A stretch of DNA of 64,000 bases from Puia sp. Its GTDB lineage: Bacteria > Bacteroidota > Bacteroidia > Chitinophagales > Chitinophagaceae. Where the stretch lies: contig DATMGS010000019.1 of the NCBI GenBank assembly GCA_035555335.1, positions 77,500 through 141,499 of the forward strand. Reading direction: 5' to 3'. The notes under the pieces were generated by a model, which saw only the letters and a list, made by a program, of their open reading frames with translations, had not been told where the DNA came from and did not search any database. The position numbers were made by a program, and so were the translations under genes. Shown here in pieces: positions 7,119 through 57,400 of this stretch; the first letter of the stretch is position 1; each line of letters starts with the position of its first letter.

Positions 7119-7163
7119 ATCGATTCTTTAGGTATTTATCCAAAGTTTATATTATTTTAGCAC

Positions 7164-7171
7164 TATATTTG
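7164..7171 (+). promoter_or_regulatory. -7 promoter element upstream of the 92-aa ORF
   Basis: TATATTTG followed by a leader of about 105 nt that contains a GGATAAGGG/CCCTTATCC hairpin. Confidence 0.5.
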
Positions 7172-7279
7172 ATTCGGATAAGGGATGTGACCCCTTATCC
7201 TATCCCCTGAAGAGCCCGTCGCTACCCCCTTTTAATAGCCTGTCAGACCTCGTTTCTGAACCTTAAATTATTTTTTAAG

Positions 7280-7558: not shown

Positions 7559-7596
7559 GAGCCTGGCAGACGCAGGCTACCCATGGCTGGCACTCA

Positions 7597-8373
7597 TTAC
7601 CCATATAATTCCTGGTGAATGGATTTTCGGTCATAGCCCAGCAGCTGAATCCGCTGCTTGGCTTCATCGATCATATTTTTCCACCCGCATAAGAAAAATG
7701 ACGCCGGCGGCAGCTCCCCGGACCCAGCCGCCAGCTGTCGGTCGCGGCAGATCTCCTCATACACGGTATGTACATACCCGGTACGTATATGCTGTATACC
7801 TGGTATACCTGGAGGAGTATCCACCGGCGCCTCCCGGGAGAAAGTGGGGATATAATGAAAAGCAGGCATCCGCTCCGCCAGCTCCCTTAATTCCTTTTCA
7901 TACAGGGCGTCCCCGAAATGACGGCACCCGAAGATCAGGTAGATCTCCTTATAGGGAATATGATGATTAAACAGATGATGCGTCATGGAACGAAAAGGCG
8001 CAATCCCCGTGCCCGTACAGATAAAGAACAGATCTTTTTCGATAGGCTCCGGCAGGGTGAATACTCCCTGGGGACCGCGAACCGTCAATTCACTGCCTAC
8101 GGTCACTTCATTAAATAAGTAATGAGTGCCGGCTCCCCCCTCCAGCAAAACGATCACCAGCTCAAGAACATTGGTGCCATCGGGCCAGGATGAGATCGAA
8201 TAGCTTCGTACCCGTTTATTGGGTTTCTCGTGAATGGGAAGATCTAATGTTACAAACTGACCCGGCTGAAAATCGAAGGATTCCAACCCCGGCAACTGGA
8301 TCCAGAACCGGCGGGTCTGCTCCGTTGCATTCTCGATGCGTATGATCTTACCTGTTTGCCAAGGTTGAAGCAT
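7597..8373 (-). CDS. Ferredoxin--NADP reductase-like FAD/NAD(P)-binding oxidoreductase
   Basis: FQPGQF, RSYSISS, GPQG, TGTGIAPF, FLCG motifs. Confidence 0.93.
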   Translation of the reverse strand: MLQPWQTGKIIRIENATEQTRRFWIQLPGLESFDFQPGQFVTLDLPIHEKPNKRVRSYSISSWPDGTNVLELVIVLLEGGAGTHYLFNEVTVGSELTVRGPQGVFTLPEPIEKDLFFICTGTGIAPFRSMTHHLFNHHIPYKEIYLIFGCRHFGDALYEKELRELAERMPAFHYIPTFSREAPVDTPPGIPGIQHIRTGYVHTVYEEICRDRQLAAGSGELPPASFFLCGWKNMIDEAKQRIQLLGYDRKSIHQELYG

Positions 8374-8385
8374 AAGTATATCGAT

Positions 8386-11300
8386 TTATTTTTTTATCAG
8401 GATCTTTCGGACATACACACTGCCGCCATGCACGATCTTAAGCACATACATCCCCGATGCCAGGTTCCCCGCGGCTATCTGCCGGGAGAACTGTCCGGCA
8501 AAACCCGGATAGGACGCTTCATAGACCTGCTGGCCCAGCGCATTGATCAGGCTGATACCGGTATTATCAGGCGTATCCACGAAAAACTCCAGTTGGAAGC
8601 TCCCATTGCTCGGACTGGGGTAGACTTTAAGCCCGATAGCATCAATGGATGTGCCCGCCCCCGTGTAATTGATGGAATTGGAGGGCAGGGAACAACCCGT
8701 TGCCGTATCGATTACAATAGATTGATAGACACCCGGCAAGCTGGCGGTATCCACCTGCTCCGCAGCGCCGCTGATCGCGGCCCCGTTACGATACCACTGG
8801 TTGCCGCTGAGGAAGCTGCTGGTAAGCACATTCCCGCTCAGGATGATCGTGGGCGCCACGGGAGTAGTCGCCACTACCGCCGTTCGCGGACCGGGGCAGC
8901 CGGCCAGCCGGACCCCTATATCGTAGAAGGGGAAATAGAATTTCTTAAAGTAGGTAAGACTGTCCGCCTTCGGATCATCGCGAAAATCATTGCCCGTAAC
9001 AGAAAATACGCCCGGCAAAGAGACCGGATAAGGAAGATCGGTAGAGCTGACATTCACAAAAGCTGACGAATAGTTCAGACAATCGATCAGAATGATATAA
9101 TCTCCCGGCGCCGGAACCGGAATATTCAGATAAAAGAAGGCTCCCGCATCCGTATTGTCTCCCGCAGCCACATTCACCTGCCTGGCGGTATCCGGGTGCG
9201 CCGTAGTGGCGTATACGTCGACGGTGGTATTATAGAGCGGAATATACGAATAGCCCAGAGAGGTATAGCTTACGAGCGTAGCCAGCGTGAGAGAGAGCTG
9301 CCCGGAATGACCAATATACATTTTGGCGCTCTCGATCGTCAGCGGCACGCTGGTAGTGAACTTAAAGAAGTTGCCGCCAAAGCGGAAATAAGCTCCGGCC
9401 CCGCTGGAATACGTCCCCTTGTCAGAAGGCCCCGCCTTAGCCTTTAAATCGTTGAGGCCCACATAATAAGTCTTATTGGACGTGACGACATTGGCAGACG
9501 TGCCGGCGCCGGCTGCGATAGGAGTGGACGCCGTCGGACTATCATACCAGAGAGGCAGGTCATTACCCGCTGTGGTAGCTTTCAGGAGTACCTGGGCACC
9601 CGTCGCGGTACAGAGCGTTGCCGTTCCGGAGACCGCGCCCGCTCCGGCATTCACTGTGATCACAGACTGATTCTGATCGTTACTGGTATTCAGGTCGGCG
9701 GCCAGCGCCGTACCGCTGCTAAAGGTATAGGTTACTCCGGCTACGGAAGGGAAAGTCTTGTTATACGTGAAGATCACTTCGCCCCTGGGGGCAATGCTAT
9801 CGGTACAGGTGGCAGTCAGCGTGGCGACCACCACAGCGCCATTCCTGATGACGGTAGTAACCGGCACGCTGGTCTGGGGTGTCGTGCCGAAATTCCGGAT
9901 ATGGACGGCAACCAGCTGTGAATCACTGGCGCAGGTAGTAAGGGTAGGGTATTCCAGCGCCGTCACCCCTACGTCATTGGCAGGAGTCGTAAAGAGTACC
10001 CGGTAGTCCTGCGTCTCGCCGGCTGCATAATTGCCGCAGGGTGTTACGGAAGACGGAGCTCCGGTCTCCTCTGCAATGACCCGCATGCGGGAATAGCTGC
10101 CGATCGTGGCGGTTGCAGGGATGGTAATATTGGTGTTATATACGCCGCCGGTGACCACGCCGCTCTGCGCTACCATTTCTCCGGGGTCGCTGAAACTTCC
10201 GTTATTGTTAAAGTCTATGTATACGGTAATGACCCGGCTGTTATTGGTGGAATTGCAGCTGCTATGCGTGATGCTGAGGGGCAGTGTCTGGCCCAGGGGC
10301 AGCTGGGCGGAAGGCAGGCCCGTCAGGTCCGAATAGGTCCTGCAAGCGGCCGCATTGGTGCGGGAGAGCGTGCCAAGGGTAATCTTATCGATGCTCGCAC
10401 CCGGGCCGGTAGCCGCCGAAGAGCAGTAAGCCGTCCCCCCCACACCACTGACCAGCAGGGTATAAGCCTGCGAACCTCTTGCCAGGATGCCCTTATGAGT
10501 AATGTTTATAGTATAGGCCCTGCCGGGAATAAGACTATCGACCTCTATCTTTTCCACGTTGTCCAGGGTATTGTCACCCGTAGCAGCCGCCGCAGGCCGA
10601 TTGCCCGGATCCAGGATCCAGGGCTTATAGACCGTGCCCGTGCTATTATCCGTGATCCGGATATCCAGGTCATTGACCAGTTTAGGGCTGACATCGGCAA
10701 AGTTCGCCCCGGTGACAGGGGCCGGAGTGCCGGGAGGATCGGTCCAGGAAATAGTAGCCGTAAGCACCGTCCTGCCGGAAGCAATGACGGGGATATTGTC
10801 GGCATCATGCGTCCCCTGGGTGAGCAAATTCTCCTGAAGCAGCTGATCGGTATTATTCGAGGTGATGACAGACACCGCCTTTTGCATATTGATCAATCCC
10901 CACCCATATTGGTAATCGGGACCGGGACTGGAGCCTGCTTCGTCGGCTGTATGGATGAGCAGCCCCTTCAGCGTGGCAGCCCGCATAAATGCGCCGCTAT
11001 GCAGTTTGGAATACTGCTCCTGTAATAAGAAAGAAGAGCCGGCAGAAGCGGGAGAGGCCATGGACGTCCCGCTGAGCAATTCATAGGCATTATCGGCCGA
11101 GCTGACAGAAGAGAGGACATTCAACCCATCAGCTACTACATCGGGCTTGATACGCCCGTCGCCGGTAGGCCCCCAGCTGCTAAAATCCGTCAGCACCACA
11201 TCCGAAGGCTGGGTATACCCTCCGGGAATAGGGCCGACCGCGCCTACCGTAAGGATGTTCTTGGCATTTCCGTAAGTGGCGATGATAGCATAGCCGGCAT

Positions 11301-43480: not shown

Positions 43481-46213
43481 TTATTTCGAAAATTTTACCA
43501 TTTTCTCACTGATCATTTTATCGGCATACTGGATTTGCAGCACGTAAGTACCATTGGTCAGCCCCCCCAATCCATAAAGAGAGAGCCCATTGAGGCCCTG
43601 CGATACAGGAGCTTTTTCGCGTCGGACCACCCGTCCGTACATATCGGTCAGCCTGATCACCACCGTGCCATCACCCGGGGTCGTCAGCTCCATCGTGATA
43701 TGGTCGGAGAAAGGATTGACCACGCTCCTGATCTCGAAACCGATCCCCGCAGTGCCCAGCAGGACCAGGCTGCTATAACGGTGCGTATTGTCGCTGGTGA
43801 TATTGATGCGGTAATAGGATTGTGCGGCGGGCGGATTGGGGTCTGTGTAATGATACCCCGCACCCTGTCCGGCGCCGGCTGTACCTTTCACGAAGCCGAT
43901 GGACGTAAAATTGACACCATCGTCACTACGCTCGACGATATAACCGACATCGGCCGTCTCATCGGCGCTTACCCATTGCAGCGCACTCAACCCTTCCCGT
44001 ACCTGTCCGCGAAAAGAGATCAGCGTAGTAGGCAGCACGATCATACAATTGACGGCAAGTACGATCTTGGGCGATAGGGTTATAAAAGAACAACTACTGC
44101 TGCTTAAATTGGCAGTGGTGCTGGCAACGGTGATCCGGTACATAAGATAGGTATTGACTGCGTTGAGCCGGAAATAGCGGGTAATGATATATTCATACTG
44201 ACCGGTCGCTGAATTATACACCGGTACAGCGCTACCCGATGCGGCGGCTCCCGTCGTATCGACCCCGACGGTCACCCAGGTGGTCCCCCCGTCCGTGCTT
44301 TTCTCCATCTTCCATTCCGTATAGTTGGAAAAATAGGAAATGACCTTAAAACGGACCGTATCGTCCGCGCCCTGGCAAAGGGTATCGGGTTTGTTAGGCG
44401 TCAGCACCATTTGAGGCGAACAGCTGGCTACGCCGATGTCATCGATGGCCCAGTCATTACCACCGCCACCGGGGGCATTGTTCCGGATGCTGATAACCAT
44501 CGTAGTCTGGGTCGCGCCCGTCAGGAAAGTAAACCCTTTCTGTACCCACTGGCCGCTATATTGTATATTCCCCGTGGTATAATAATCATACCCGTTCACA
44601 TTAAAGGTCAGGTTGGGGTATACGCCCGAAGAGTCATGGGTGGTGGAATTCGTAGGGATATAACCCGAACTGCCGGATCCGACGCCATTCGAGTCACATC
44701 CGCAGCGGGAACACATATTGCGGAACCAGCCGCTATACTGGTAGTACGTATTCGGACATAGATTATAGACGGTGTCCAGGAAAGCTGTATCCGTCCGGTA
44801 AGCGGAGTTGACCACAACCATATAACCACCCGTCTTGCCCGAGTTGTCATCCGTTGCAGGATTACCCGCGGTAGGACTGGCCGCTCCGGTATGGTCGCCG
44901 ATAATATCCCATACACCGAATATCCGGTGGGAAGGGCTCTGGGAATTGTCCGGCTTGGCCCAGGTATTCAGGATCGAATAACCCTGCGCCGCCGTGGTGC
45001 CGCCGCTCGTATTATTGGATATGCCATAATAATAGTCATTCGGCATGCCCGCGCTGCTCGAAAAAGCGGAATAGGTATAATTGGACGGCACTTTATTGGA
45101 AGCCGCCCGGTCCTTGGTGCTCCCCGACCCGAAAGTGCCGCCGAATTCATTGATGATCGCATTGCTTCCAACCGTATTCGGGCACATGCCGTAATTCTTA
45201 AAGAGCATGATATCATCCTTCGGAAAGGTGACCTGGACCATGCCCGTAGTATTGTTGTATTGGAGCATGCCGGCACCCACACTCACCACGGTATTATACC
45301 CCACAGCCCCTACCACTACCCGGTAAGAAGCTATCATGATACAGGAGCCGCCGTAAAAACTAGGTTTGCTGGTATTGGCTAAGATCCCCCCGGCAGTGGC
45401 GGTAGCCCCGGATCCCAGGTTGATCGTGATGGCCGAGCCCGAGAGAGTACCCCCGTCCGCATCGGAGGCATCGGTAAATTGCTGGTATATTTTGCCTTCA
45501 TTCGTCAACACCCGGAGCGTACCGGCCTGATAGGTCGTATTGGCGGGGATATTATCGGTAAAGGAACAATCATAAGCTGAATTGGCTTTCACGACAATGG
45601 TAGCTCTAATCTCCAGGGTGTCTCCCGGCTCAATCGTACCCCCGGTGGTCCCTTTGGTAATATTTAAATAGCTTTTGCCGTAATCGACGGTAGGAACACC
45701 CGTCGTCAGATTGGTGATACAGATGTTGAACCCCCAGAGTCCTGTCGTAAAAGGCCCCGTTGAATTGGTATAGATCCGGATGTAATAGGTCGTACCTACC
45801 GTAAGACCAGCGCCGCCGATGTTCGTTAGCACATTGAGCGTATTCCCGCTCACACAGGCGAGGGAAGTCATGCTTGCACAGGTCCCTGAAAATAATTGGA
45901 TCCTTGCTCCTGCAGCACTAAGACTCCCTCCTAAACTGCTTAAAGTAATAGTGGGATAAGAACTGGTTGCCACAAATGAATACCATACGTCCGCGGAAGT
46001 AGCCGCACCGCAGTTCACGGCTATCCCCACACTGGCGGTGGCATTTTTTAAGGTGCCGGCTGTAGTCGTACAGGTGGTGCCGGAGGTGAGCGTAGAAGCA
46101 CCAGAGCAAAGGTCATTTGTTGGTTGTGCATAAGCCAGGTTGCTTACCAGGAAAAAGATCACTAAAGCAAGCAGGGCTTTGACTGTGCGTACAGAACAGA
46201 GCTTGGTTTTCAT
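43481..46213 (-). CDS. Large T9SS type A sorting domain surface protein (DUF11-like and lectin-like modules)
   Basis: Signal peptide; QPTNDLCSGA module; GGTIEPGDTLEI DUF11-like motif; DHT..GYMVVVN module; LTNGTYVLQI C-terminal domain. Confidence 0.82.
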   Translation of the reverse strand: MKTKLCSVRTVKALLALVIFFLVSNLAYAQPTNDLCSGASTLTSGTTCTTTAGTLKNATASVGIAVNCGAATSADVWYSFVATSSYPTITLSSLGGSLSAAGARIQLFSGTCASMTSLACVSGNTLNVLTNIGGAGLTVGTTYYIRIYTNSTGPFTTGLWGFNICITNLTTGVPTVDYGKSYLNITKGTTGGTIEPGDTLEIRATIVVKANSAYDCSFTDNIPANTTYQAGTLRVLTNEGKIYQQFTDASDADGGTLSGSAITINLGSGATATAGGILANTSKPSFYGGSCIMIASYRVVVGAVGYNTVVSVGAGMLQYNNTTGMVQVTFPKDDIMLFKNYGMCPNTVGSNAIINEFGGTFGSGSTKDRAASNKVPSNYTYSAFSSSAGMPNDYYYGISNNTSGGTTAAQGYSILNTWAKPDNSQSPSHRIFGVWDIIGDHTGAASPTAGNPATDDNSGKTGGYMVVVNSAYRTDTAFLDTVYNLCPNTYYQYSGWFRNMCSRCGCDSNGVGSGSSGYIPTNSTTHDSSGVYPNLTFNVNGYDYYTTGNIQYSGQWVQKGFTFLTGATQTTMVISIRNNAPGGGGNDWAIDDIGVASCSPQMVLTPNKPDTLCQGADDTVRFKVISYFSNYTEWKMEKSTDGGTTWVTVGVDTTGAAASGSAVPVYNSATGQYEYIITRYFRLNAVNTYLMYRITVASTTANLSSSSCSFITLSPKIVLAVNCMIVLPTTLISFRGQVREGLSALQWVSADETADVGYIVERSDDGVNFTSIGFVKGTAGAGQGAGYHYTDPNPPAAQSYYRINITSDNTHRYSSLVLLGTAGIGFEIRSVVNPFSDHITMELTTPGDGTVVIRLTDMYGRVVRREKAPVSQGLNGLSLYGLGGLTNGTYVLQIQYADKMISEKMVKFSK

Positions 46214-46446: not shown

Positions 46447-48231
46447 ATGAAAAGCAGACCAATTTATATTTGTTGTCTTTCGGCCTGCCTGTGCCTATCT
46501 CTGAATCTTTCTGCTCAAATGACCGTAACATATTATGGTCAGACTTTTAAAATCGACACTTTATACCCCGCCACCGGGTCAACGGGAATGAATACGCCCT
46601 GGGAGGTCGTTTATGGTCCGGACGATTCCTTATGGGTGACGGCAGCCCATGATTATAAGATCTGGAAGATCCATCCGGGGAATAAAGGAGTCCGTGAACT
46701 GCTGGATGTCAATGGCCTAAAAGACTTTACAAGCCCCGCCTCCTGGCCCCAGGGCGGGTTAATGGGCCTGGCTATACACCCCGCATTCTATTCGGGCAAG
46801 CCATGGGTCTATTTTGCGTATGTCTATCACCTGGTGGGTTGTAACACCGGCAGCAACCCCACCGGCAATCCGTTCTGCACCAACTGCGCCACTGGGTCCT
46901 GCAGCTTTAACACCAAAATCGTCCGTTACCAATATAATTTTGCGGATGGCTCCTTATCCTATATGAACGATGTGATCTCCGGGCTGAATGGGAGCACCGA
47001 TCATAATTCCGGCCGAATCCGGATCAGTCCGCTTACGGAGAGCGATGGGAAATATCATCTTTATTATACGATCGGGGATATGGGGGCGGGTAACCTGTCA
47101 AATGCCAACCGGCCTAATCATGCCCAGGATACCACTATCATAGAAGGAAAAGTATTAAGGCTGAATACGGAGCCGGATCTTTCATTGACTGGCAGTCAGC
47201 AATGGGTCCCGGGTGATAATCCCTTTCCGGAGGGCGCGGCCCCCTCCGCTAAAAGCCCTATATATTCTTTTGGTCACCGTAATCCCCAGGGGCTGGTCTT
47301 CGGCTCCGTGAACGGGGGCGCCTCCTATAATTTGTACAGCAGCGAGCATGGGGATAAGTCGGATGACGAGGTGAATATCATTTTACCCCATACCAATTAC
47401 GGCTGGCCAAAAGTAGCCGGCCTCTGCGATGATAATTATACTTCGACGAACGGGGATTCCATGTACCTGGCGAATAAATCCGTTATCAGTGAAAAGGGGT
47501 TTTGCGATACGACGCACACTACGTTGCAGGAGCCGATTTTCTCTTTTTATAACTGGAGCCGGGCTAATAATAAGACTTCGGGAGCGCAGGGAAATATGTA
47601 CTGGCCTACTATTGCCCCGTCCTCTATTGCCTTCTATGGACAGGGAGCTATCCCGGGCTGGAATTATTCCCTGCTGGTGCCTTCTCTGAAGAATGGTCTT
47701 TTCCGGTTAAAATTAAAACCGGACGGGCTCAGCATCGACAGTACGCAGTTGCCTACCGATACCCTCCATTATCTGCCGGGTTTTCGGTTACGGAATATCA
47801 CGGTGGCGCCTTCCGGAGATACGCTGTTTGTAGCGGTAGACAATTCCTGTTGTGCGATCGATGCTTCCGGAACGCTGGGCACGTCCGTATCCACCCCCCC
47901 GGATAAGGGGTTTATCCTGCGGATGGTGTATATGACGACCCTGGACCTGAAGGGGGATACAAATAAAATACTGCCGGAACCTACTCTGACCACCTGTAAG
48001 GTATATCCGAATCCAGCCCACAAGACCCTCTATGTGGAAGTCCCCCCGGGGGAGCGCCGGCCTCTGACAGCGGGTCTCTATGATATCACGGGCAGACTCC
48101 TTCTGCGGATGGAGACGGCCGACGATCATTGTTCTCTCGACGTTCATGCTCTTTTGCCCGGGATCTATGTTTTCCGGCTCCTGAATGGGTATGCGGTACC
48201 GTTGCTTACCGAGAAGATATTGATCGAATAA
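46447..48231 (+). CDS. PQQ-dependent sugar (glucose/sorbosone) dehydrogenase with T9SS sorting domain
   Basis: PWEVVYGPD, GGLMGLAIHP, HNSGR, YSFGHRNPQGL, SEHG..DDEVN, NYGWP; VYPNPA...LLPGIYVF C-terminal domain. Confidence 0.88.
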   Translation: MKSRPIYICCLSACLCLSLNLSAQMTVTYYGQTFKIDTLYPATGSTGMNTPWEVVYGPDDSLWVTAAHDYKIWKIHPGNKGVRELLDVNGLKDFTSPASWPQGGLMGLAIHPAFYSGKPWVYFAYVYHLVGCNTGSNPTGNPFCTNCATGSCSFNTKIVRYQYNFADGSLSYMNDVISGLNGSTDHNSGRIRISPLTESDGKYHLYYTIGDMGAGNLSNANRPNHAQDTTIIEGKVLRLNTEPDLSLTGSQQWVPGDNPFPEGAAPSAKSPIYSFGHRNPQGLVFGSVNGGASYNLYSSEHGDKSDDEVNIILPHTNYGWPKVAGLCDDNYTSTNGDSMYLANKSVISEKGFCDTTHTTLQEPIFSFYNWSRANNKTSGAQGNMYWPTIAPSSIAFYGQGAIPGWNYSLLVPSLKNGLFRLKLKPDGLSIDSTQLPTDTLHYLPGFRLRNITVAPSGDTLFVAVDNSCCAIDASGTLGTSVSTPPDKGFILRMVYMTTLDLKGDTNKILPEPTLTTCKVYPNPAHKTLYVEVPPGERRPLTAGLYDITGRLLLRMETADDHCSLDVHALLPGIYVFRLLNGYAVPLLTEKILIE

Positions 48232-48337
48232 GTTTAACGGTGTCTTAACGCCGGTTGTTTCGTTCGTGGCGGGGAAATGACCGGTATAAGGGTAAACCAC
48301 TCCCTATTTATCTGTGCATTTGGCTAAATTTGCAGAA

Positions 48338-48874
48338 ATGGTGTTATCGGCTATGATGGTCCTGCATCTTCTTTTTTTTATAGAGGTGGTTTGTTTTTTG
48401 GCGGGGTGCCTGTTTTGGCGAAAGCAGTGGCCGCTGCAATATAAGATGCTGGTCCTGTTGATGGGTTTAACGGTGTTGGTGGAACTGGCCGGCCGCATCC
48501 TGGGAATCCGGTACCACCAGAATGTCTGGCTGTACAATCTTTTCTTGCCGCTGGAGTCCGCTTCTTATATCTGCTTTTTCTACCTGGAATCAGCCCACCC
48601 GGCCATGAAGTGGCTGTATCGTTGTCTGCTGGCGGCGATCGTCCCGGCCCTGGTGATCACCTGGCTTAAACAGCCGCATTTTTTCATTTTTAATCAGTAT
48701 GGATATATTGCCGGCCTGTTCCTGCTATTGGTGGCGGCAGCATTGATCTATCTGGCAGAAATACCGCACTTGTATTTAGAAATAGTGAATACCATCGCCA
48801 ACATCTTTCTATACGGGGGCGTGACAGGCTGCTTCTTCACGGCCAGTCAGCCGGCCAAATTTACCACTTTGTAG
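48338..48874 (+). CDS. Hypothetical polytopic membrane protein, possibly internally deleted
   Basis: TAAATTTG promoter element at 48325-48332 supports the ATG at 48338; hydrophobic helices with NVWLYNLF motif. Confidence 0.6.
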   Translation: MVLSAMMVLHLLFFIEVVCFLAGCLFWRKQWPLQYKMLVLLMGLTVLVELAGRILGIRYHQNVWLYNLFLPLESASYICFFYLESAHPAMKWLYRCLLAAIVPALVITWLKQPHFFIFNQYGYIAGLFLLLVAAALIYLAEIPHLYLEIVNTIANIFLYGGVTGCFFTASQPAKFTTL

Positions 48875-49037
48875 TATTGCTCCTTTTATAGTGATCTTCT
48901 ACCTTTATCCCGATAAGAGCCACAGATATATAGTACCAGACCTGACCGCCTGTTCAGATCCTGTATACCCTGCCATAGACCTGCCTGGTTACTTTCCTCC
49001 ATTCAACGGCGAGCGGGAATAAATTAAATAACAATAC

Positions 49038-49646
49038 ATGCAACCAATTCTCTTTTTCTGGATAGCCTTTCTGGTCTTGCTGGCACTGATGGTGTTCCTG
49101 GACCAAAAGTTCTTTATGCTGCGGGACAGCAGCACAGCCCTGCCCAAGCCATATAGCTATGCCCGGGTGCAGCTGGCCTGGTGGACGCTGGTGGTGCTGT
49201 CATGCATCATTGCGATCCTGCTGGCGGGCAGTGCGATGCCTACGCTCGACAGCTCGACACTGATCCTGCTGGGGATTGCAGCGGGTACTACGGTGGCGGC
49301 CCGGCTGATCGATGTCTCCGACCATACCAATTCGGGTACCGGCCTGGTCAGCCAGAATTTCCCAGGCGAAAATTTCCTGTTGGATATTTTGTCCGATAAG
49401 AACGGGGTAAGCATTCATCGGCTGCAGTCGGTACTGATCAATATCATCTTCGGGGTCTGGTTCATCGCGCAGGTGCTCCGGCATTTGACGGGGGTGAACC
49501 CCTGCCTGCCAGGGGATGCAGATTGTTTAAAACACCCGCTTGATTTTATCATGCCGGTGATCAGTACGAATAACCTGATCCTGCTGGGGCTGAGCTCGGG
49601 GACTTATGCGGCGCTGAAGACCACGGAGAATAAGACGGCGGCATAG
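49038..49646 (+). CDS. Hypothetical membrane protein with internal duplication
   Basis: Two repeats: SYARVQ...MPTLDSSTLILLGIAAGT and SIHRLQ...MPVISTNNLILLGLSSGT. Confidence 0.8.
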   Translation: MQPILFFWIAFLVLLALMVFLDQKFFMLRDSSTALPKPYSYARVQLAWWTLVVLSCIIAILLAGSAMPTLDSSTLILLGIAAGTTVAARLIDVSDHTNSGTGLVSQNFPGENFLLDILSDKNGVSIHRLQSVLINIIFGVWFIAQVLRHLTGVNPCLPGDADCLKHPLDFIMPVISTNNLILLGLSSGTYAALKTTENKTAA

Positions 49647-49719
49647 GGGCGATAGATTATTTATTATTTTTTTATTATATATATTGAAGATATATTAGAT
49701 CTTTATTTAATCTAATTCT

Positions 49720-51822
49720 ATGGATCGAAAGGAGAACGACCTCACACATATCAGGTTTCGAAAGGATTTTTCCTATGCTAAGAAAACGCCCACTTTCGTC
49801 AGCAATGCGATCGGCGCCTCCGATGAGATAGCGAGATGGGTGCTCGATTGGAATGATGTCTTATATAAGGACGAACCCCATGCCCCCGCCCTGTGCACTC
49901 CTGTTATGAATAGATTGATTGGTGACGGCAATACCGGCGGCCCGGGCCCTGTTTTGATCAGGACGGATGCGCTGCTCTATACGACAGAGAGTGTGATCGT
50001 TTATTTCGAACAACGTTGTGCGCCGGAGAAGCGGCTTCTGCCGGCGGATGCCGCTAAGAGACAGGAAGTAGTGACTTTATATAATCTGTTTACCGGCCCC
50101 TTTGAAGGGAACGTATACGGGTATCTCTATGGACAGTTGCTCGCCAACCCGGGAGAAGCGCGGAGCTGGTTTACACAGGGCGTTCCCTTCGGGGAGAAAC
50201 TGCAGTATATGCTGTCGTTTGGCGCCCTGCGAAAAGAGCTGACCCGCGAATGGGGGCTGGCGGAGAAGCCGGCGGGAGAGAGGCTCGCCTATATTAAAAA
50301 AATATTCGGGGATGTGGATACGATACTGAGCGATGGCCGCAGATACCTGACGGGAGACCGGTTGACCATCGCCGATATTGCTTTCGCCGCTGTAGCAGCG
50401 CCGTTGCTCCTGCCCATTGAATTCGGGGGAGCAATAGGGGCGATCCACACGGTGCCCACAGAGATGCGCAGAGAAGTGGAAGAGCTTAGGGCGACCCCCG
50501 CAGGTCAGTATGTTTTGCTGCTCTACCAGGATGAGCGCCCCCTGCGGCGTAGCCGGAAAGATATCCCGAAGGACCCGGGCCCTTTGGGAAAGCTGGGTTT
50601 GCAGCTGGGGCTGGCGCTGGACCGGAAGAAGACAGGGCTTTTCTGTTTCCTGCAAAAGCACTTCCCCGTACTGAGGCTGGGAATAGTAGGGCTGGCGGCC
50701 GTCTGTAAGAATGACCTGCTGGTAGAAATGATGGAGCGGGATAATGATTTTACCGTGGAGGAGATCAATGGTAAGAAGATGGCCAATCAGAAGGGGGCCT
50801 TCTTTTTAGGTTTTGACCGCAATAACCCCCAGTTCGACCGGGAACGGAATTTTGTCCGCCGGACGGCGAAGAAAGAAGACATGGACCGGATCCGGTCTTT
50901 TATCCGGGATTCCTGCGAGCAGATCCTGCGACAGGCGAGATCTTATGGCAAGGTGGATGTGGCCGATTCGATGTGTTATACGGTATTGGTGCGTTTCATC
51001 GACGATTATTTCGGGGTGCCGCCTCCCACGGAGCCGATTATGCGACATTGGCTTCGCGTATTGTTCTATGACCTGTTCCTGAATTTTACCAATGACGCGG
51101 TCAAGCACCAGGAAGCTGTAAGCGCCGCCCTGGACAGAAGGGTGTGGGTCCTGCAGCTGATCAGGGACCGGCGGCGTGATCTGGATACGGGTAAGACTTT
51201 AGCCGATAATGTGTTGAACCGGATGATCCTGCTGCAAAGGGAGGAAGGCAACGGATGGTTCGACGATGAGACGATCCAGCGTAATATCGGGGGATTGATC
51301 ACGGGTATCCTGGAGACGACGAATAAGGCAGTAGTGCTGGTATTGGATGAACTGTTCAACCGGCCCGATGTGCTGAAGGGAGCGATCGATACGGCGCAGA
51401 TAAAGGATATGAAAAAGATGTATGGGTATGTGTCCGAGGCGCTGCGATTTAACCCCGCGCAGCCCGGAGTGATCCGGTATTGTGAGAGCGGGCAGGTGCT
51501 GAAAGGCAAGGGGACCAAACCATACCGGATCAAAGCAAAACGCAAGGTCTTCGCGCTGACGGCCTGCGCGATGATGGACCCGGCCGTATTCCCTGAGCCC
51601 CGGCAGTTCAACCCTCAGCGGGAGGCCGTCTATATGAACTACGGATACGCATTGCATGAGTGTTATGGTAAGTACATCAATGCGGTGACGATCTCCGAGT
51701 TTGTGGCGGCCGTGCTGCGTTTGCCCGGTATCCGGCGGGAGCCGGGATGGGCGGGGCGGGGGACGGGCCTGCATGTGGGACCGTTCTTTAACAATTTTGT
51801 AGTGCGATTCGATACCATTTAA
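49720..51822 (+). CDS. Glutathione S-transferase-fold / cytochrome P450 fusion protein
   Basis: GST-like N-terminal part (ARWVLDW...HAP; YLTGDRLTIADIAFAA); P450 C-terminal part with GILETT (I-helix), EALR, PRQFNP and YGYALHECYG (Cys codon at 51661). Confidence 0.85.
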   Translation: MDRKENDLTHIRFRKDFSYAKKTPTFVSNAIGASDEIARWVLDWNDVLYKDEPHAPALCTPVMNRLIGDGNTGGPGPVLIRTDALLYTTESVIVYFEQRCAPEKRLLPADAAKRQEVVTLYNLFTGPFEGNVYGYLYGQLLANPGEARSWFTQGVPFGEKLQYMLSFGALRKELTREWGLAEKPAGERLAYIKKIFGDVDTILSDGRRYLTGDRLTIADIAFAAVAAPLLLPIEFGGAIGAIHTVPTEMRREVEELRATPAGQYVLLLYQDERPLRRSRKDIPKDPGPLGKLGLQLGLALDRKKTGLFCFLQKHFPVLRLGIVGLAAVCKNDLLVEMMERDNDFTVEEINGKKMANQKGAFFLGFDRNNPQFDRERNFVRRTAKKEDMDRIRSFIRDSCEQILRQARSYGKVDVADSMCYTVLVRFIDDYFGVPPPTEPIMRHWLRVLFYDLFLNFTNDAVKHQEAVSAALDRRVWVLQLIRDRRRDLDTGKTLADNVLNRMILLQREEGNGWFDDETIQRNIGGLITGILETTNKAVVLVLDELFNRPDVLKGAIDTAQIKDMKKMYGYVSEALRFNPAQPGVIRYCESGQVLKGKGTKPYRIKAKRKVFALTACAMMDPAVFPEPRQFNPQREAVYMNYGYALHECYGKYINAVTISEFVAAVLRLPGIRREPGWAGRGTGLHVGPFFNNFVVRFDTI

Positions 51823-51833
51823 ACCAATATTTC

Positions 51834-53096
51834 ATGACGCATCAACATCCACTGACGCTTGTTACGCCCGTGAAAGACGGGGAACATGATAGCCTGCATA
51901 GCTTGCTCATGCAGATACGGGCGGATGTGCAGGCCGGTATCCCCCAGTCTTTCGAGAGCCTGGGCACGATCCACTATGCCCGTTGGATATTGCTGGAACC
52001 CAAAGATGCCGATGGCAACGTCGAGACGGATGTGGGCGTACGGTTGGTTTTCTCCTCCAACTATGACGGAGACGAGGATGTTCATCTGACCGGATTGGCC
52101 AATCATTGCGCCGTTTTCATCGATCAGCTCTACGGGCATTGCGAGGGATATCCTGCCCCGGCCAGCCGGACGGTAGAGAATCGTAAACAATATTTAGCGA
52201 AGTGGCGGGTGAAGGAGTCCGCCTTCTTTGTAGGCGCGCCGGGCAGGACCCTGCCGCAGATCCGCCAGGAGAACGAGCTGCGCAATTACGTCTGGACCCG
52301 GATCAATCAGGGCGACTGGAAGGGAAAGTCGGCCCGGGAGATCCACCAGGTCCTGAAGCAGGACGTATTGGATAAACCCGGATTTCAATGGGCGCGGCAA
52401 TCTATAACCATACCGGGTATCCGGTGGCTGGGCATGGTCCTGCTGGGACTGATCCTGCTGATCCTTCTGCCGGTCATCATCATCTGGATCCTGCTGTTGC
52501 ACTTCCTCTTCGAACGGACCGATGAACCGCTGGGACTGACACCCAGCCAGGTGAGCGGAGCGCATGTCAAAGAGCTGGAAGAGTATGAGGACCTCGCCAA
52601 TCAGAATCAGTTTACACAGGTGTTGATCATGAAACCGGGCATGATGCGGCTGATCACACTGAAAGGGCTGATGTTGTTTGCGAAGGCGCTGATCAGCTTT
52701 CTCTTTGTGAATGGCAAGCTCATGGGGATACCTACGATCCATTTTGCCCGCTGGGTAATGATCGACAATCAGAAGAGGATGTTGTTCTTCAGCAATTTCG
52801 ACGGGAGCTGGCAGCAATACCTGGGCGATTTTATCGATAAGTCGGGATGGGGACTGACGGGGATCTGGAGTAATACCATCAAGTTCCCGCGCACAAAATT
52901 TCTCTTTACCGGCGGCGCTTATGATGAGGAACACTTTCTGGCCTGGAGCCGTTATTTCCAGGTGCCGACTGCCGTCTGGTATTGTGCATATCCGCGTCTG
53001 TCGATCAAGAATGTCATCAACAATTCCTATATCCGCAATGAGCTGTTCCGGGATCTGAGCGAAGAGGAGGCGAGGAATTTCTTACAGCGGTTCTGA
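51834..53096 (+). CDS. Hypothetical protein with duplicated TIH[YF]ARW...SN[YF]DG domain and central TM helix
   Basis: Domain 1 GTIHYARW...FSSNYDG, domain 2 PTIHFARW...FFSNFDG, separated by WLGMVLLGLILLILLPVIIIWILLLHFLF. Confidence 0.85.
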   Translation: MTHQHPLTLVTPVKDGEHDSLHSLLMQIRADVQAGIPQSFESLGTIHYARWILLEPKDADGNVETDVGVRLVFSSNYDGDEDVHLTGLANHCAVFIDQLYGHCEGYPAPASRTVENRKQYLAKWRVKESAFFVGAPGRTLPQIRQENELRNYVWTRINQGDWKGKSAREIHQVLKQDVLDKPGFQWARQSITIPGIRWLGMVLLGLILLILLPVIIIWILLLHFLFERTDEPLGLTPSQVSGAHVKELEEYEDLANQNQFTQVLIMKPGMMRLITLKGLMLFAKALISFLFVNGKLMGIPTIHFARWVMIDNQKRMLFFSNFDGSWQQYLGDFIDKSGWGLTGIWSNTIKFPRTKFLFTGGAYDEEHFLAWSRYFQVPTAVWYCAYPRLSIKNVINNSYIRNELFRDLSEEEARNFLQRF

Positions 53097-53139
53097 GGGC
53101 GCGGCGACGTCCACATTTTTAAAGGTTTAAATTTATTTT

Positions 53140-54549
53140 ATGGAAGAGACATTAGAGCTATCGGATATACAGGGATATATCATCAGGGGATACAAATACA
53201 TGCAGTATTCCCGGTATGCGGTGCTGCGGGTGACCGACGCCGTGGAAGCCCGAAAATTCCTGAAAGACCATGTGGACGAGGTGACGAATGTGACGCATCA
53301 TGCGAAAACGAATTGCCTGAATATCGCTTTTACCTGCGCCGGGCTGAATGCGCTGGGGTTGAAGAATTCCAACCTGGCTTATTTCACCCGGGAGTTCCGG
53401 GAGGGGATCACGTCGGCGCATCGTCAGCGGCTGCTGGGAGATACGGGAGACAGCGCTCCGGAGGCCTGGCGTTGGGGAGGACCCGATAACGAAGCCGTAC
53501 ATCTGTTGTTGATGGTCTTTGGGAAGGATAAAGAGACGGCATTGAGCTATTATACAAGGCTGCAGAAGGAATTTGCGCCGGGATTGGCGGAGGTATTGCA
53601 GATGGATGGACAGACTTTGCCGATGAACAGGGAGCATTTTGGTTTCCGGGATGGGATCTCGCAGCCGATTATCAAGGGGAGCGGACGTAAGGGGCCGGAG
53701 AATGATTATATCAATGCCGGGGAATTCCTGATGGGCTATAAGAATGAATACGACGTATACCCGGATACGCCGCTGCTGGGCGAGGACCAGGGGGAAAGCT
53801 TCCTGCTGCCTTTCGATGCGGCGGGCACGGGGAAGAAGGATCTGGGACGCAATGGCAGCTATATGGTGATGCGGCAGCTGCAGCAGGATGTGAAGGCGTA
53901 TTGGGAGTTTATGAATGAGAAGACCAGGAATACGGATGGCTCTGTCAATGCGGAGGAAAGTACCAGGCTGGCTTCGAAGATAATGGGCCGCTGGCCCAGC
54001 GGGGCGCCGGTGGTGAAGTTCCCGGACAAGGACCCGGGGGGAGAATCGAATGACGATTATTTTACGTATTCGGATCTGGATAAGGAAGGGCTGAAATGCC
54101 CGTTTGGCTCCCACCTGCGCCGGACCAATCCCCGGGATAACTTCGAGGACAACGGACCGAAAGAGTCGATGCGGCTTACGCGGCGGCATCGGATCATGCG
54201 CCGGGCGAGGCTGTATGGGGATCCTTATATGGGATCTCCGTCGAACTATACGCCGGACGGGGAGGTCGGGCTAATCTTTACCTGCTTCAATACAGATATC
54301 TCACGGCAGTATGAGTTCATTCAATATACCTGGGCGAATTATCCTAAATTCAAAGAGCTGTATAATGACCCGGACCCGGTGTGCGGAGTGAAACATGACC
54401 CCGGACCGGGAGTGGAGCAGAACTTTACGATACAGGCGGAGCCGGTGAATAAATATGTGACGGGGTTGCAGCGGTTTGTAACGGTGAGAGGTGGAGCCTA
54501 TTTCTTTTTCCCTTCCGTCACAACCATCACCTACTTAAGCACCTTATAA
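53140..54549 (+). CDS. Dye-decolorizing (DyP-type) heme peroxidase, no signal peptide
   Basis: DIQG, EHFGFRDGISQP (catalytic Asp), GSYMVMRQLQQ, GRWPSG, CPFGSHLRRTNPR (proximal His), IMRR (distal Arg), GGAYFFFPS. Confidence 0.93.
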   Translation: MEETLELSDIQGYIIRGYKYMQYSRYAVLRVTDAVEARKFLKDHVDEVTNVTHHAKTNCLNIAFTCAGLNALGLKNSNLAYFTREFREGITSAHRQRLLGDTGDSAPEAWRWGGPDNEAVHLLLMVFGKDKETALSYYTRLQKEFAPGLAEVLQMDGQTLPMNREHFGFRDGISQPIIKGSGRKGPENDYINAGEFLMGYKNEYDVYPDTPLLGEDQGESFLLPFDAAGTGKKDLGRNGSYMVMRQLQQDVKAYWEFMNEKTRNTDGSVNAEESTRLASKIMGRWPSGAPVVKFPDKDPGGESNDDYFTYSDLDKEGLKCPFGSHLRRTNPRDNFEDNGPKESMRLTRRHRIMRRARLYGDPYMGSPSNYTPDGEVGLIFTCFNTDISRQYEFIQYTWANYPKFKELYNDPDPVCGVKHDPGPGVEQNFTIQAEPVNKYVTGLQRFVTVRGGAYFFFPSVTTITYLSTL

Positions 54550-54567
54550 CAACTAAAAAATCTATTC

Positions 54568-55005
54568 ATGAGTCCTGACACCATGTTCGAACTAACCTCC
54601 CTGTTTGCCGGAATCGGCTGGATCGCCCTTCTTTTTGTGAGCCCCTACTGGCCCGGCTTCGACAAATTCCTGATCGGCGTGATCATTGCCTTGCTGGCTT
54701 GTGTCTATACCTGGTTGAATTTCTCCAACTTCAGCCCGGATATCCTGAAGAATTTCAGCTCGCTGGAAGGAGTGATGAAACTGTTCCAGATCCCCGAACT
54801 GGTGGTGGCCGCCTGGGTCCATATCATGGCCTTCGATCTTTTAACCGCCGTCTGGATAAAGAAGAATTCCCTGCAACTGGGGATCGGGCATGGCTGGATC
54901 ATACTTTCCCTGATCTTTTCCTGCCTTTTCGGGCCATTGGGTTATCTTATCTATCTGCTGACCCGCTGGATCAGGACGAAAAACTATTTTTCTACGAATT
55001 TTTGA
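54568..55005 (+). CDS. ABA4-like / DUF4281 membrane protein
   Basis: AWVHIMAFDL and FGPLGYLIY motifs; four TM helices. Confidence 0.85.
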   Translation: MSPDTMFELTSLFAGIGWIALLFVSPYWPGFDKFLIGVIIALLACVYTWLNFSNFSPDILKNFSSLEGVMKLFQIPELVVAAWVHIMAFDLLTAVWIKKNSLQLGIGHGWIILSLIFSCLFGPLGYLIYLLTRWIRTKNYFSTNF

Positions 55006-55183
55006 CCGTAGAAGGACATAAAACGCCGTCAGGCGCGTTATTAATGCTTCCATTCTGTGAGATAAACGATTGAATAAATGAGTGTTTGACGGTTGAACAA
55101 ATGATTGTTGAACTTGTTTAATAAAATGACACGAGGGTTGCTGCCAGATGATACAAAGGAAGAATTAACTAACACGATAGAAC

Positions 55184-55435
55184 ATGCAACTTGTCAACGA
55201 CGCGAGCGGGGTGCCCCACCCTGAAATTAAGTGTACGGTATGTGGAGTGGCTTTGTACGCGACGGATTGGGGTAGTTTCGAAGTGACCTATCATTGTTCC
55301 TCCGCAGAAGCGAGGTTCTGGGATTTCGACCGTGGAACACCTGATCTGACCCGGGCCAAAGAACATTGGGATAAATCCAAACAGGAAATATTGCTGGATC
55401 GCAGCGAGGAGAAGAAGCTGGACGCGACAGGATAG
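55184..55435 (+). CDS. Small hypothetical protein with possible zinc-ribbon ligands
   Basis: 83 aa; CTVCG and YHCSS; A-rich start context. Confidence 0.6.
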   Translation: MQLVNDASGVPHPEIKCTVCGVALYATDWGSFEVTYHCSSAEARFWDFDRGTPDLTRAKEHWDKSKQEILLDRSEEKKLDATG

Positions 55436-55501
55436 ATCTCGCCCCGGCCCCCTCTTCTCTTTGCGACCATCACAGAATGGCTCCGCGATTACTCACCGCG
55501 A

Positions 55502-56254
55502 TCAGTTCGTGGCTCCTCCATTTACTAATAAATGCTGACCCGAAACGAAAGACGATAAGTCGCTGGCAAAAAACTCGGCCAGGTTGGCTACGTCTTCTAC
55601 TTCCGCAAGCCTCCCCATCGGACAGCTATCCAGCAACTGTTTTCTTAATTCGGGATAGGCCTTGGGATCTGCAAAGATGCCCGAATGATCCACGGCAAAA
55701 GGAATGATCGAATTGACGGTAACCCCTCTGTGTCCGATCTCTTTGGAGAGGATGTCGACAAGGTAGCGGGGCGTGGTCTTGCTGCCGCCATAGACCGCCA
55801 TGCCGGGAACGGGGAAGCTGGTGGTGCTGGATGCCACATAAATGATCCTGCCATTGTCTTCTATATGCCGGGCTGCCTGCTGCAAGGTGAAGTACGTGCC
55901 CTTGGTGTTGATGGAAAACACCCGATCGAATTGTTCTTCCGTAAAATTGACCACCGGTGTCTCGACCAGCTCGATACCCGCATTGGCCACGACGATATCT
56001 ATTTTCCCAAAGGCTGATTTTGCTTCCGTAAATAACTTTTCCAGATCGGCGACCTTGCTGACATCGGCCTGGATAGCAATCACTTTGACACCCATAGCTT
56101 TAATATTGGAGACCACTTCTTCGGCGGATGCCTTGTCCCTGGAGTAGTTGATGACGATGTCGGCGCCCATGGCGGCATAACGCTCTGCAATGGCTTTGCC
56201 TAAACCTCTGGCTGATCCTGTAACCAGGGCGACTTTGTTCTTTAAACTGTTCAT
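55502..56254 (-). CDS. Short-chain dehydrogenase/reductase (SDR)
   Basis: TGSARGLG, NAG, YGGSK (YxxxK). Confidence 0.95.
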   Translation of the reverse strand: MNSLKNKVALVTGSARGLGKAIAERYAAMGADIVINYSRDKASAEEVVSNIKAMGVKVIAIQADVSKVADLEKLFTEAKSAFGKIDIVVANAGIELVETPVVNFTEEQFDRVFSINTKGTYFTLQQAARHIEDNGRIIYVASSTTSFPVPGMAVYGGSKTTPRYLVDILSKEIGHRGVTVNSIIPFAVDHSGIFADPKAYPELRKQLLDSCPMGRLAEVEDVANLAEFFASDLSSFVSGQHLLVNGGATN

Positions 56255-56283
56255 GACGATTATTTTTTTGTTGGGTTAATAAA

Positions 56284-56602
56284 TTAAGCCATCGCTCCGT
56301 TGATGCCCCTGCCGCCGATCTCTTTGGAGAATACGCGCGTCAGCTGCTCCACAGCCGATTTGGTAGCGGCATAGGTCGAGTAAGTGGGAACCATCACCCG
56401 GTTGTTGGTGCTGGAAAAATTAATGATGCTGCCTTAATTTGGTGATCATAATGCCGGCATTGTTCACCAGCACATCGATCTTGCCGTAGACGGCGATGGC
56501 TTCGCCGCCCTGGGTTTTAATCTCCGCGACCAGCTGTTCGGCGACGTCCTGACCGCCTGCGTAGTTGACGACTAATACTACTTTGCTGTTTAACGTGCTC
56601 AT
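56284..56602 (-). pseudogene. SDR pseudogene with four internal deletions and a frameshift
   Basis: Retains KVVLV, VNYAG, YGKIDVLVNNAG and (in a shifted frame) GSIINFSS...YAATK...GRGIN GAMA, but lacks the intervening blocks present in the adjacent intact SDR. Confidence 0.85.
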
Positions 56603-56687: not shown

Positions 56688-57400
56688 CTAAGATCGGCCT
56701 TTGCCGGCCTGTTTCCGATACAGGATAGGGGAGAGGTCGGTGTGTTTTTTAAAGTAATTGCTGAAGTGGGTGGACTCGGGGAAGCCCAGCTGCCAGGCGA
56801 TCTCCTTGATGGAAATAGAAGAGTTCTGAAGGAGGGACCTGGCCTCGGCGATGGTCTTGTCAGAGATCCAGGCGCCGACGGATTTGCCGGTCTTGCTTTT
56901 GATGACGTTGCTGAGATAGTTGGGATGCAGGTGCTGAGCCGCGGCATAGTCCTGGATGCGGAAGACCTTTGTTTCGGACCCTTTCAGGAGGTTACGGTAG
57001 TGTTGTTCAAGTGTCTTTTTGAAGGATTTGACGATCTGGGAGGAACGGTTGCCTTCGTAAATGGGATTGTATTCCGACCAGAAGTATTCCTTTATTTTCA
57101 GCAGCAGGACGACGAATAAGTTGCCGATCACCCGGTTCTTATAGACAGAGCTGGAAAGATATTCTTTATGGATCTGTCCATAGAGCTGTTCGAATTCCGC
57201 AAACATCTCAGGTTGCAGCACCCGCGGGGGAACTGTCTCGGCCAGGAGAAAAGGGAATTCATCGAAGATGTTGGGGTGTACGTTTTCTTTCAGGAAGGAT
57301 TCGCTGAGAGTGATCAGGTAAATGGCGTCTATGTTATGCCATGATAAACGTATTGCTGGTGCAGCGAGTTAAAAACCAGGGCCTTTTCTTGGGTTGCCAT
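56688..57400 (-). pseudogene. AraC family transcriptional regulator, frameshifted by an apparent internal deletion
   Basis: The ATG at 57400 gives MATQEKALVFNSLHQQYVYHGIT then stop. A second frame (WHNIDAIYLITLSESF...) runs into an intact AraC HTH (HLHPNYLS...SIKEIAWQLGF...HFSNYFKK). Confidence 0.75.

Follow-up and report, generated by a model that had tools for sequence, protein, structure and literature searches.

What does a protein of no named family do between two haem enzymes? The question is raised by a gene at positions 51834..53096 (+) of the 64,000-nucleotide (nt) stretch of a Puia sp. genome analysed here (contig DATMGS010000019.1; hereafter the window). The gene is an intact open reading frame (ORF) of 420 codons, the second in a run of four close-packed genes on the same strand, and its 420-residue product (P0001; hereafter the target) is encoded between a cytochrome P450 and a DyP-type haem peroxidase. 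Our analysis indicates that the target is a duplicated protein with two predicted domains of the ABM/DABB fold around a central hydrophobic segment, that it is very likely a physical partner of the DyP encoded downstream, and that it probably represents a missing DyP subunit which could help explain what DyPs do in cells. On balance, we favour the reading in which the target is a membrane-tethered, substrate-presenting partner subunit of this DyP, acting on lipid.

The constant partner gene of the target (53140..54549, +) encodes a 469-residue class-V (C/D-type) DyP haem peroxidase (Pfam DyP_N and Dyp_perox_C; TIGR01413), with the motif GFRDG (D171), a proximal H325, R354/355/357 and an invariant W398. 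Species-representative genomes contain at least 583 confirmed loci encoding relatives of the target, 80 of which were kept for the neighbourhood counts given here and below. Searches with the window's neighbours (tblastn) placed a DyP gene downstream and on the same strand in 79 of these 80 loci, and in the sole exception (L030) the sequence stops 2 nt past the target gene. The DyP match begins at most 120 nt away in 75 of the 79 loci, with ORF-to-ORF gaps mostly of 2–13 nt; the more distant outliers are L064 (5.6 kb), L023 (463 nt), L028 (452 nt) and L076 (220 nt). The DyP of L023, from a Chitinophagaceae assembly, is split into two ORFs of 129 and 282 residues (L023:7276-8687); the gene may be a pseudogene, or the split may stem from a frameshift or a faulty assembly. 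Six relatives (P0079, P0095, P0107, P0126, P0143 and P0153) are single target-DyP chains in which the DyP domains are C-terminal to the family region, and L079 encodes such a fusion as a single ORF of 925 residues. A tblastn search of plasmids yielded 22 records, and single P450-target-DyP chains are encoded on alphaproteobacterial plasmids, namely on pNL2 of Novosphingobium aromaticivorans (WP_011907039.1, 1443 residues) and on a plasmid of Sulfitobacter pontiacus (1620 residues). The entire family profile (positions 4–425) sits between the two haem domains of these triple fusions (E 7e-71 and 8e-76), so that, judged by sequence, they are the window's gene order in one chain. The correlation of target and DyP distances in a mirror-tree comparison (r = 0.94) was given no weight, because it is explained by shared descent.

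The association is also apparent in structure prediction. The complex of target and DyP was modelled with paired 51-row alignments, haem included though not scored, alongside three controls, and reached an ipSAE of 0.87 (0.88, 0.86 and 0.87 in the individual runs) versus 0.00 in all three controls. Of 157 solved complexes, 116 attain the corresponding ipSAE mark, as against 2 of 215 mismatched pairs; this calibration is only approximate here because of the custom alignments and the haem ligand. The models contain 94–100 contacts, at least 97% of them common to the runs, with partner pLDDT of approximately 90. The target contributes mainly its C-terminal half (residues 236–256 including E252/D253, P300, D323-G324-S325, 327–335, 363–367, 388–396 and 414–420), together with helix residues 154–170 of the N-terminal half, whereas the DyP side comprises residues 80–98, 202–211, 336–349, 388–408 and 425–441. 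Target residues at the predicted interface are more conserved than those elsewhere (0.72 versus 0.59, permutation p 0.001). The complex model thus supports binding between target and DyP. The first-pass annotation of the window had suggested that the target might supply the P450 and had proposed a pull-down with the DyP; a link to both enzymes is strongly supported by synteny, fusions and the complex model taken together.

The predicted interface also suggests how the two proteins might cooperate. DyP residues 388–408 read ..SRQYEFIQYTW398ANYPKF.., with W398 present in 51 of 51 sequences, and a phmmer alignment pairs W398 with a Trp of Amycolatopsis DyP2 (4g2c, '..qqiWannp..'), which is Trp396 if chain index 423 includes a 27-residue tag; the offsets of 4au9 fit position 376 or 377. 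Trp396 of DyP2 is described as homologous to Trp377 of the fungal AauDyP, a solvent-exposed catalytic site that oxidises bulky substrates, the DyP2 counterpart being more buried (PMC7961821). By this alignment, W398 corresponds to the Trp at which fungal DyPs form a surface radical. In the complex model, the conserved SNFDGSW-QQYLGDFID helix of the target lies against the DyP helix bearing W398, whose helix neighbours 396, 397 and 401–403 contact D323-Q328 of the target, and the invariant W326, Y329 and F333 share one helix of the target. The predicted contacts therefore suggest, on geometric grounds, that an electron or radical might pass from the haem via W398 to Y329/W326. Because the SNFDGS motif falls within the predicted interface, its conservation in the C-terminal half may serve partly docking rather than catalysis.

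The internal duplication proposed by the first-pass annotation is well founded. BLASTP of residues 1–190 against 226–420 gave E 2e-5 over the TIH[YF]ARW...SN[YF]DG core (13 identities in 41 positions), and profile-profile comparison of the halves (hhalign, 65-member alignment) gave a probability of 99.85% and E 1.2e-30 over 145 columns, aligning residues 2–159 with 255–410; at the sequence level, the duplication exceeds chance. All motifs that had been listed were recovered, namely Q4-H-P-L-T8 and Q257-N-Q-F-T261, T45-IHYARW51 and T301-IHFARW307, S75-NYDG79 and S320-NFDG324, and, towards the C terminus of each copy, GAP...I143xxE146xxL149R150 and AYP...V394xxN397xxI400R401, the second copy having V instead of I. 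Across the halves, H47 pairs with H303, R50 with R306, W51 with W307, N76 with N321, D78 with D323, C103 with N347, P107 with P352 and R150 with R401; the His, Arg, Trp, Asn and Asp are thus the same in both copies of the window protein, as had been noted. Rather than varying among homologues, the 2 His residues are each kept in 64 of the 65 aligned members. In the same alignment, D78 occurs in 65/65 sequences, D323 in 62/65, N321 in 64/65, N76 in 52/65, R50 in 59/65, R306 in 55/65 and W307 in 61/65, W51 is the majority residue at less than 70%, and the invariant positions are D78, C103, F318, Y329, F333, P352 and G361. The triple fusions have lost C103, R50 and W51 and retained the His and Asp residues.

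Both halves are predicted to adopt the same fold. The full-length AlphaFold2 model (65-row alignment; pLDDT 95.8, pTM 0.92) contains, according to DSSP, the succession E4-13, H18-33, E46-54, E70-78, H81-100 and E130-133 in the N-terminal half (residues 1–190; 51834..52403, +) and E257-266, H270-289, E302-310, E315-323, H326-345 and E381-384 in the C-terminal half (residues 250–420; 52581..53093, +). The former, with the conserved H47, R50, D78 and C103, thus has a ferredoxin-like beta-alpha-beta-beta-alpha-beta core with extra helices, and the latter, which includes TIHFARW (301–307) and SNFDGSWQQYLGDFID (320–335), is a second ferredoxin-like domain. The best structural match of the full-length model is 9lmn_B (Z 14.1, 228 residues aligned, root-mean-square deviation 4.2), followed by 9ltx_A (Z 11.6, 197/206 aligned), 3mcs_B (Z 10.0) and 3f44_A (Z 9.8), all 4 being single-chain tandem-ABM proteins aligned over model residues 1–387. 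Approximately 45 single ABM/DABB domains come next (Z 5.4–7.3), those matching the N-terminal half doing so over model residues 1–137, and Foldseek agrees (E 2.8e-4 for 9ltx, and 1.7e-3). Folded alone, the C-terminal half drops to pLDDT 72 from 96 in context, which is consistent with its packing depending on the N-terminal half, and all 50 of its top fold matches are of the ABM/DABB fold (best Z 6.9; MhuD Z 6.0, IsdG Z 4.7). In the model, the 2 halves appear to pack sheet to sheet as one tandem ABM-type barrel. The ferredoxin-like dimeric alpha+beta-barrel fold that the first-pass annotation had assigned to both halves is thereby supported by prediction and fold search, but its more specific comparison with DyP and chlorite dismutase, which with EfeB make up the CDE superfamily, is not supported. 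The family profile matched that of the partner DyP with a probability of only 0.3% (hhalign, E 0.23 over 10 columns), the target has no DyP match in Pfam, and neither a DyP nor a chlorite dismutase chain is among the 50 matches shown for the full-length or the C-half model, an absence that does not by itself exclude a family. The idea that the target is a divergent DyP paralogue was rejected at the sequence level on the strength of the same hhalign result.

The conserved residues raise the possibility that the target is itself a cofactor enzyme, with H47 and/or H303, together with D78/D323 and C103, ligating haem or a metal; it would then be the dioxygenase or isomerase supplying the P450, as first suggested, and the DyP only a neighbouring enzyme. 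We consider this unlikely. In its favour, H47, H303 and D78 are near-invariant and C103 is invariant in the stand-alone family, the fold is common to the haem oxygenases MhuD and IsdG (Z 6.2 and 5.7 to the N-terminal half) and to the iron enzyme sulfur oxygenase reductase (Z 6.5), and H303 lies outside the predicted DyP interface, so that its conservation calls for another reason. However, searches of Pfam, NCBIfam and the PDB sequences matched the target to no family that binds haem or a metal, the triple fusions dispense with C103, R50 and W51 while keeping His and Asp, and the SNFDGS motif lies within the predicted interface. Most ABM enzymes, moreover, are cofactor-independent.

The reading of the target as a substrate-presenting partner of the DyP draws its lipid component from the wider neighbourhood, for which 651 greedily called ORFs from the 80 loci were clustered (ORF calls are unreliable in the high-GC loci). 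A catalase-related protein of approximately 350 residues, often fused to a lipid-binding SRPBCC/Polyketide_cyc2 domain or beside a SnoaL-like protein, is encoded in 39 of the 80 loci and a P450 in 18; none has both and 23 have neither. In the 56 long-flank loci, the corresponding numbers are 31, 15, 0 and 10. Rearrangement of fatty-acid hydroperoxides has 2 known, unrelated solutions, P450s and catalase-related enzymes; allene oxide synthase, for instance, is a CYP74 in plants and a catalase-related enzyme in corals. The mutual exclusivity of the P450 and the catalase-like gene is our main reason for favouring a lipid-peroxide substrate, and the lipase neighbours point in the same direction: a patatin-like lipase is encoded directly upstream in 16 of the 80 loci, 14 of which have the catalase-like gene and none the P450. 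The only PDB sequence match of the catalase-like neighbour is 3e4w/3e4y (E 1.4e-5), which we take to be a catalase-related protein of 33 kDa from mycobacteria, reactive towards organic hydroperoxides. No consistent neighbour was found in the loci with neither gene, which contain LytTR/7TMR sensors, AhpC/TSA, a GMC oxidoreductase and numerous ORFs that match no family.

In the window, the third enzyme of the module is a fusion of a GST_C-like domain and a divergent cytochrome P450 (49720..51822, +; 700 residues; Pfam p450 E 6e-14, GST_C_2 E 1e-6). A CYP74-like hydroperoxide isomerase was considered for this protein and rejected: the acid-alcohol pair is retained, the Cys loop is normal, and the nearest solved structures are those of ordinary bacterial P450s (E 1e-10). 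Its sequence resembles that of a P450 that activates O2 in the usual way. Among the neighbouring ORFs scanned, none encodes a reductase or a ferredoxin. In a Cyclobacteriaceae assembly (L062:8657-9820), a P450 of 388 residues without the GST-like part is encoded downstream of the DyP, indicating that the gene order of the trio is not fixed. The last gene of the window's run (54568..55005, +) encodes an ABA4-like (PF14108) small membrane protein of 145 residues with four hydrophobic peaks in its hydropathy profile (Pfam E 1.9e-21). Such a gene is present in 11 of the 80 loci, all of them among the closest Chitinophagaceae-type relatives of the window, and is best regarded as a clade-specific accessory; 10 of the 11 loci have a P450 match, and the eleventh (L010) includes only 2 nt of upstream sequence.

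Adenylate/guanylate cyclase proteins, either TPR-cyclases or kinase-STAND-GAF-cyclases, are encoded in 24 of the 80 loci, and their recurrence beside the pair in several lineages hints that the product or substrate of the module is sensed. Examples are a Ser/Thr kinase-STAND ATPase-GAF-cyclase of approximately 1700 residues (L015:687-5771) and a cyclase-TPR protein of approximately 650 residues (L005:5902-7869). Signalling neighbours of this kind, together with the strict pairing, the fusions and the confident complex model, would also suit a non-catalytic target, that is, an anchor, chaperone or regulator that tethers the DyP, loads its haem or keeps it inactive until a signal arrives. The closest solved structures to the window's DyP are 8re3/8re2 (E 1e-49), and DrDyP, the closest solved DyP, is described as inactive at physiological pH when studied alone, with a six-coordinate low-spin haem, its authors asking what activates it (PMC10820274), an observation that also speaks for this reading. 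We nevertheless judge a purely non-catalytic role to be quite improbable. Two full ABM domains with conserved His, Asp and Cys residues and the helix-face L21 and L25 exceed what a tether needs, and in a census of the linker between the halves (151 relatives examined, 142 of them full-length and 9 without a complete half), 2 of the 142 full-length relatives have no hydrophobic core and keep both halves, indicating that anchoring cannot be the sole role.

Where the partner subunit would sit depends on the segment between its halves. W198-F226 (52425..52511, +) is an uncharged run of 29 residues that has P214 close to its middle and reaches a hydropathy peak of 3.31. The first-pass annotation had described a single hydrophobic helix between the halves; a single uncharged stretch, modelled as one helix, is indeed present, but a topology with one transmembrane helix is doubtful. 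Were the segment a single span, the two halves would face each other across the membrane, in conflict with a tandem single-chain barrel and with an interface that uses both halves. In the linker census, the hydrophobic core measures at least 40 residues in 68 relatives, long enough for two spans, 33–39 residues in 25 and at most 32 residues in 47, of which 42 have a Pro within the central 12 residues; the triple fusions have two hydrophobic segments, and the poor folding of the C-terminal half on its own likewise favours halves on the same side. No signal peptide precedes the N-terminal half, and the DyPs, which start M..LELxDIQGY, have no apparent export signal or signal peptide. Sequence and model together make it likely that the segment is a hairpin or, in short forms such as that of the window, a Pro-kinked re-entrant anchor, with both halves on the same side and the rest of the protein cytoplasmic. 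It is very unlikely that the stretch is instead a true single span, with the halves on opposite sides and each pairing with the same half of a second chain. In favour of such a span are the 29 residues modelled as one helix, the homodimers that ABM domains form as a rule and the blindness of single-chain prediction to an inter-chain alternative; against it, the 190-residue N-terminal half lacks a preceding signal peptide, many relatives have cores of 40–60 residues and the fusions two segments, the predicted DyP interface draws on residues 154–170 as well as 236–420, and the full-length model fits solved single-chain tandem ABM proteins over residues 1–387.

The mechanism that we propose for the target as a lipid-presenting DyP subunit is a reasoned guess. 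The 2 halves would form a single tandem ABM-type barrel at the cytoplasmic face, anchored by the central hydrophobic stretch, which would dip into the membrane or loop through it in re-entrant or hairpin fashion. The DyP would dock chiefly on the C-terminal half, with the SNFDGSW-QQYLGDFID helix against the W398 helix. The barrel may bind a hydrophobic substrate drawn from the membrane, a fatty acyl chain or lipid peroxide being the likeliest, and present it to an oxidising equivalent from the DyP haem, relayed via Trp398 and possibly on to the invariant Tyr329 or Trp326. The product would then be handed to a third enzyme, the reductase-less GST-P450 in the window and the catalase-related haem protein in other lineages, in parallel to the fungal dioxygenase-P450 and coral lipoxygenase-catalase oxylipin enzymes. 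A bolder extension, which we regard as rather unlikely, is that target and DyP constitute a new membrane-bound fatty-acid or lipid oxygenase, in which the radical exits via Trp398 to Tyr329/Trp326 and abstracts hydrogen from the barrel-held lipid, and the resulting peroxide is rearranged by the P450 or catalase-like enzyme into a bacterial signal of the oxylipin type, which the neighbouring cyclases would read in many lineages.

Several observations weigh against this picture or parts of it. The loci are phylogenetically related, so their counts are not independent events. The lipid component leans on the neighbours of part of the loci, with 23 of the 80 and 10 of the 56 long-flank loci having neither the P450 nor the catalase-like gene, and the window's P450 retains the acid-alcohol pair (ILETT), ExxR and a normal Cys loop (HECYG). 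The predicted interface of the DyP, at 0.70 versus 0.67 elsewhere (p 0.19), is not more conserved than the remainder of the protein; W398 itself is absent from the contact list, and the relay geometry was read from contact lists rather than model coordinates. Finally, a stretch of 29 residues is long enough for an ordinary single span, which would leave the halves on opposite sides, and AlphaFold2 renders it as a single straight helix of 28 residues (198–225).

What DyP peroxidases do in nature, and on which substrates, has long been an open question (PMC10820274, PMC9719856). If class-V bacterial DyPs normally work with an unrecognised, membrane-tethered subunit, past assays may have left out half of the enzyme. 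The lipid-oxygenase extension, if true, would provide a physiological role for these DyPs and would mean that the dioxygenase-plus-haem-isomerase pathway had arisen independently a third time.

The target family is large and unnamed, with no Pfam or NCBIfam model. Searched exhaustively with phmmer, 1.84 billion cluster representatives yielded 2356 relatives at E<=1e-3, 1654 at E<=1e-10 and 792 at E<=1e-30, most of them 400–460 residues long and aligned end to end, and a word-index search confirmed 787 relatives from 910 candidates; among the 120 of the latter that were listed, none has a Pfam domain and all carry the source name 'hypothetical protein'. For the target itself, a Pfam scan at E<=1 returned only a weak DUF1634 match on the hydrophobic segment and no match to the ABM profile, an NCBIfam scan returned nothing, phmmer against the PDB sequences gave no match at E<=10, and the ESM Atlas holds 'hypothetical protein' clusters only, without a structure. 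In the literature, we found no description of the family; PMC9719856 alone touches it, in its account of the fused form. The 80 loci come from Bacteroidota, Actinomycetota, Acidobacteriota, Gemmatimonadota and Pseudomonadota, yet among 300 further genomes sampled evenly from the window's phylum, the target family was found in none at E<=1e-10 and the window's DyP type in none at E<=1e-20. The distribution of the family, as far as homology searches reveal it, is thus patchy. This spread, together with the patatin, cyclase and STAND neighbours, raised the question of an anti-phage defence system, which was rejected: PADLOC matched neither the target nor the DyP, P450 or catalase-like neighbour, and the patatin, kinase and cyclase neighbours gave generic domain matches only.

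The window belongs to a genome of 8.2 Mb that is 99.98% complete, and among the loci listed, the nearest relatives of its target locus in public data are from Puia and other Chitinophagaceae assemblies. Within the cluster, the gaps are 11 nt between the P450 gene and the target, 43 nt between the target and the DyP, and 18 nt between the DyP and the ABA4-like gene; a promoter and terminator scan of 48000-56500 found promoter-like sites at shuffle level and terminator-like sites scattered within genes. Upstream of the P450 gene lie 2 ORFs (48314-48874 and 49038-49646, +) of 186 and 202 residues without a Pfam match, which are not kept in related loci, only L002 matching one of them at 35% identity. 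They are preceded by genes for a glucose/sorbosone dehydrogenase-like protein (46447-48231, +) and a 910-residue protein (43481-46213, −), both with a type IX secretion C-terminal sorting domain, which marks the genome as that of a member of the Bacteroidota. Just past the cluster are genes for an SDR-family oxidoreductase (55502-56254, −) and an AraC-type regulator (56688-57221, −). The former adjoins the cluster only in the closest relatives (L002 and L003, 93–97% identity; weak matches of approximately 25% in L055 and L067), and the latter in L003 and L004 (80–84% identity; weak partial match in L010). The window's genome encodes a second DyP-like protein of 512 residues (L084, G000:C14:103000-116000, 6125-9202, minus strand), with the motifs GFRDG, SAHIRKVNPRD and EKWAN and E 2.3e-33 to the DyP profile. 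An ORF of approximately 510 residues located 6 nt upstream of it matches neither Pfam nor the target-family profile, and SIR2-like, PIN and DUF4325 genes are nearby. Judging from this arrangement, the second DyP appears to have a different, unnamed partner.

The target is a new sequence family inside a known fold, and it resembles no established system in its working. The closest structural counterparts, WhiE-ORFI (9lmn), the Abx(+)O polyketide decarboxylase (9ltx) and the putative monooxygenases 3mcs and 3f44, likewise carry two ferredoxin-like domains per chain as a pseudo-dimer. However, they are only 6–12% identical to the target and have no profile match to it, they are soluble, without a membrane segment between the halves and without a known peroxidase partner, and each half of the target has approximately 60 extra helical residues by comparison. 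The haem-degrading ABM enzymes IsdG and MhuD share the domain fold of the target halves and, like them, a conserved His, but no sequence relationship: in IsdG and MhuD, haem is held by the conserved His within an Asn/Trp/His catalytic set, whereas the target pattern is H-F-A-R-W on strand 2 and N-x-D-G at the end of strand 3.

At the level of gene architecture, the nearest precedent is DyP subclass V4, which Sugano/Yoshida 2022 (PMC9719856) describes as P450-transmembrane regions-DyP proteins, the middle part being given as 'some transmembrane regions' with its sidedness left open. The P450, target and DyP genes of the window are the unfused form of this architecture; subclass V4 is defined by a single polypeptide, whereas the three proteins of the window come from separate ORFs spaced 11 and 43 nt apart. 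The account of subclass V4 in that study recognises neither a duplicated ABM-like domain in the middle part nor the far commoner unfused and P450-less forms, but it already raises, for the fused form, the analogy with fungal Ppo. In Ppo/linoleate diol synthase, a haem dioxygenase is fused to a self-sufficient P450, and in coral and cyanobacterial fusions a lipoxygenase is joined to a catalase-related allene oxide synthase (PMC13049297, PMC5617202). Like these oxylipin synthases, the module combines a radical-forming oxygenase or peroxidase with a reductase-less P450 or a catalase-related haem protein, often with a lipase adjacent. Unlike them, its first enzyme is a DyP with an ABM-fold partner rather than a dioxygenase of the animal-haem-peroxidase type or a lipoxygenase. 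The Ppo and coral lipoxygenase-catalase enzymes thus offer the nearest analogy to the module, a likeness of logic only, in which the first component is not homologous.

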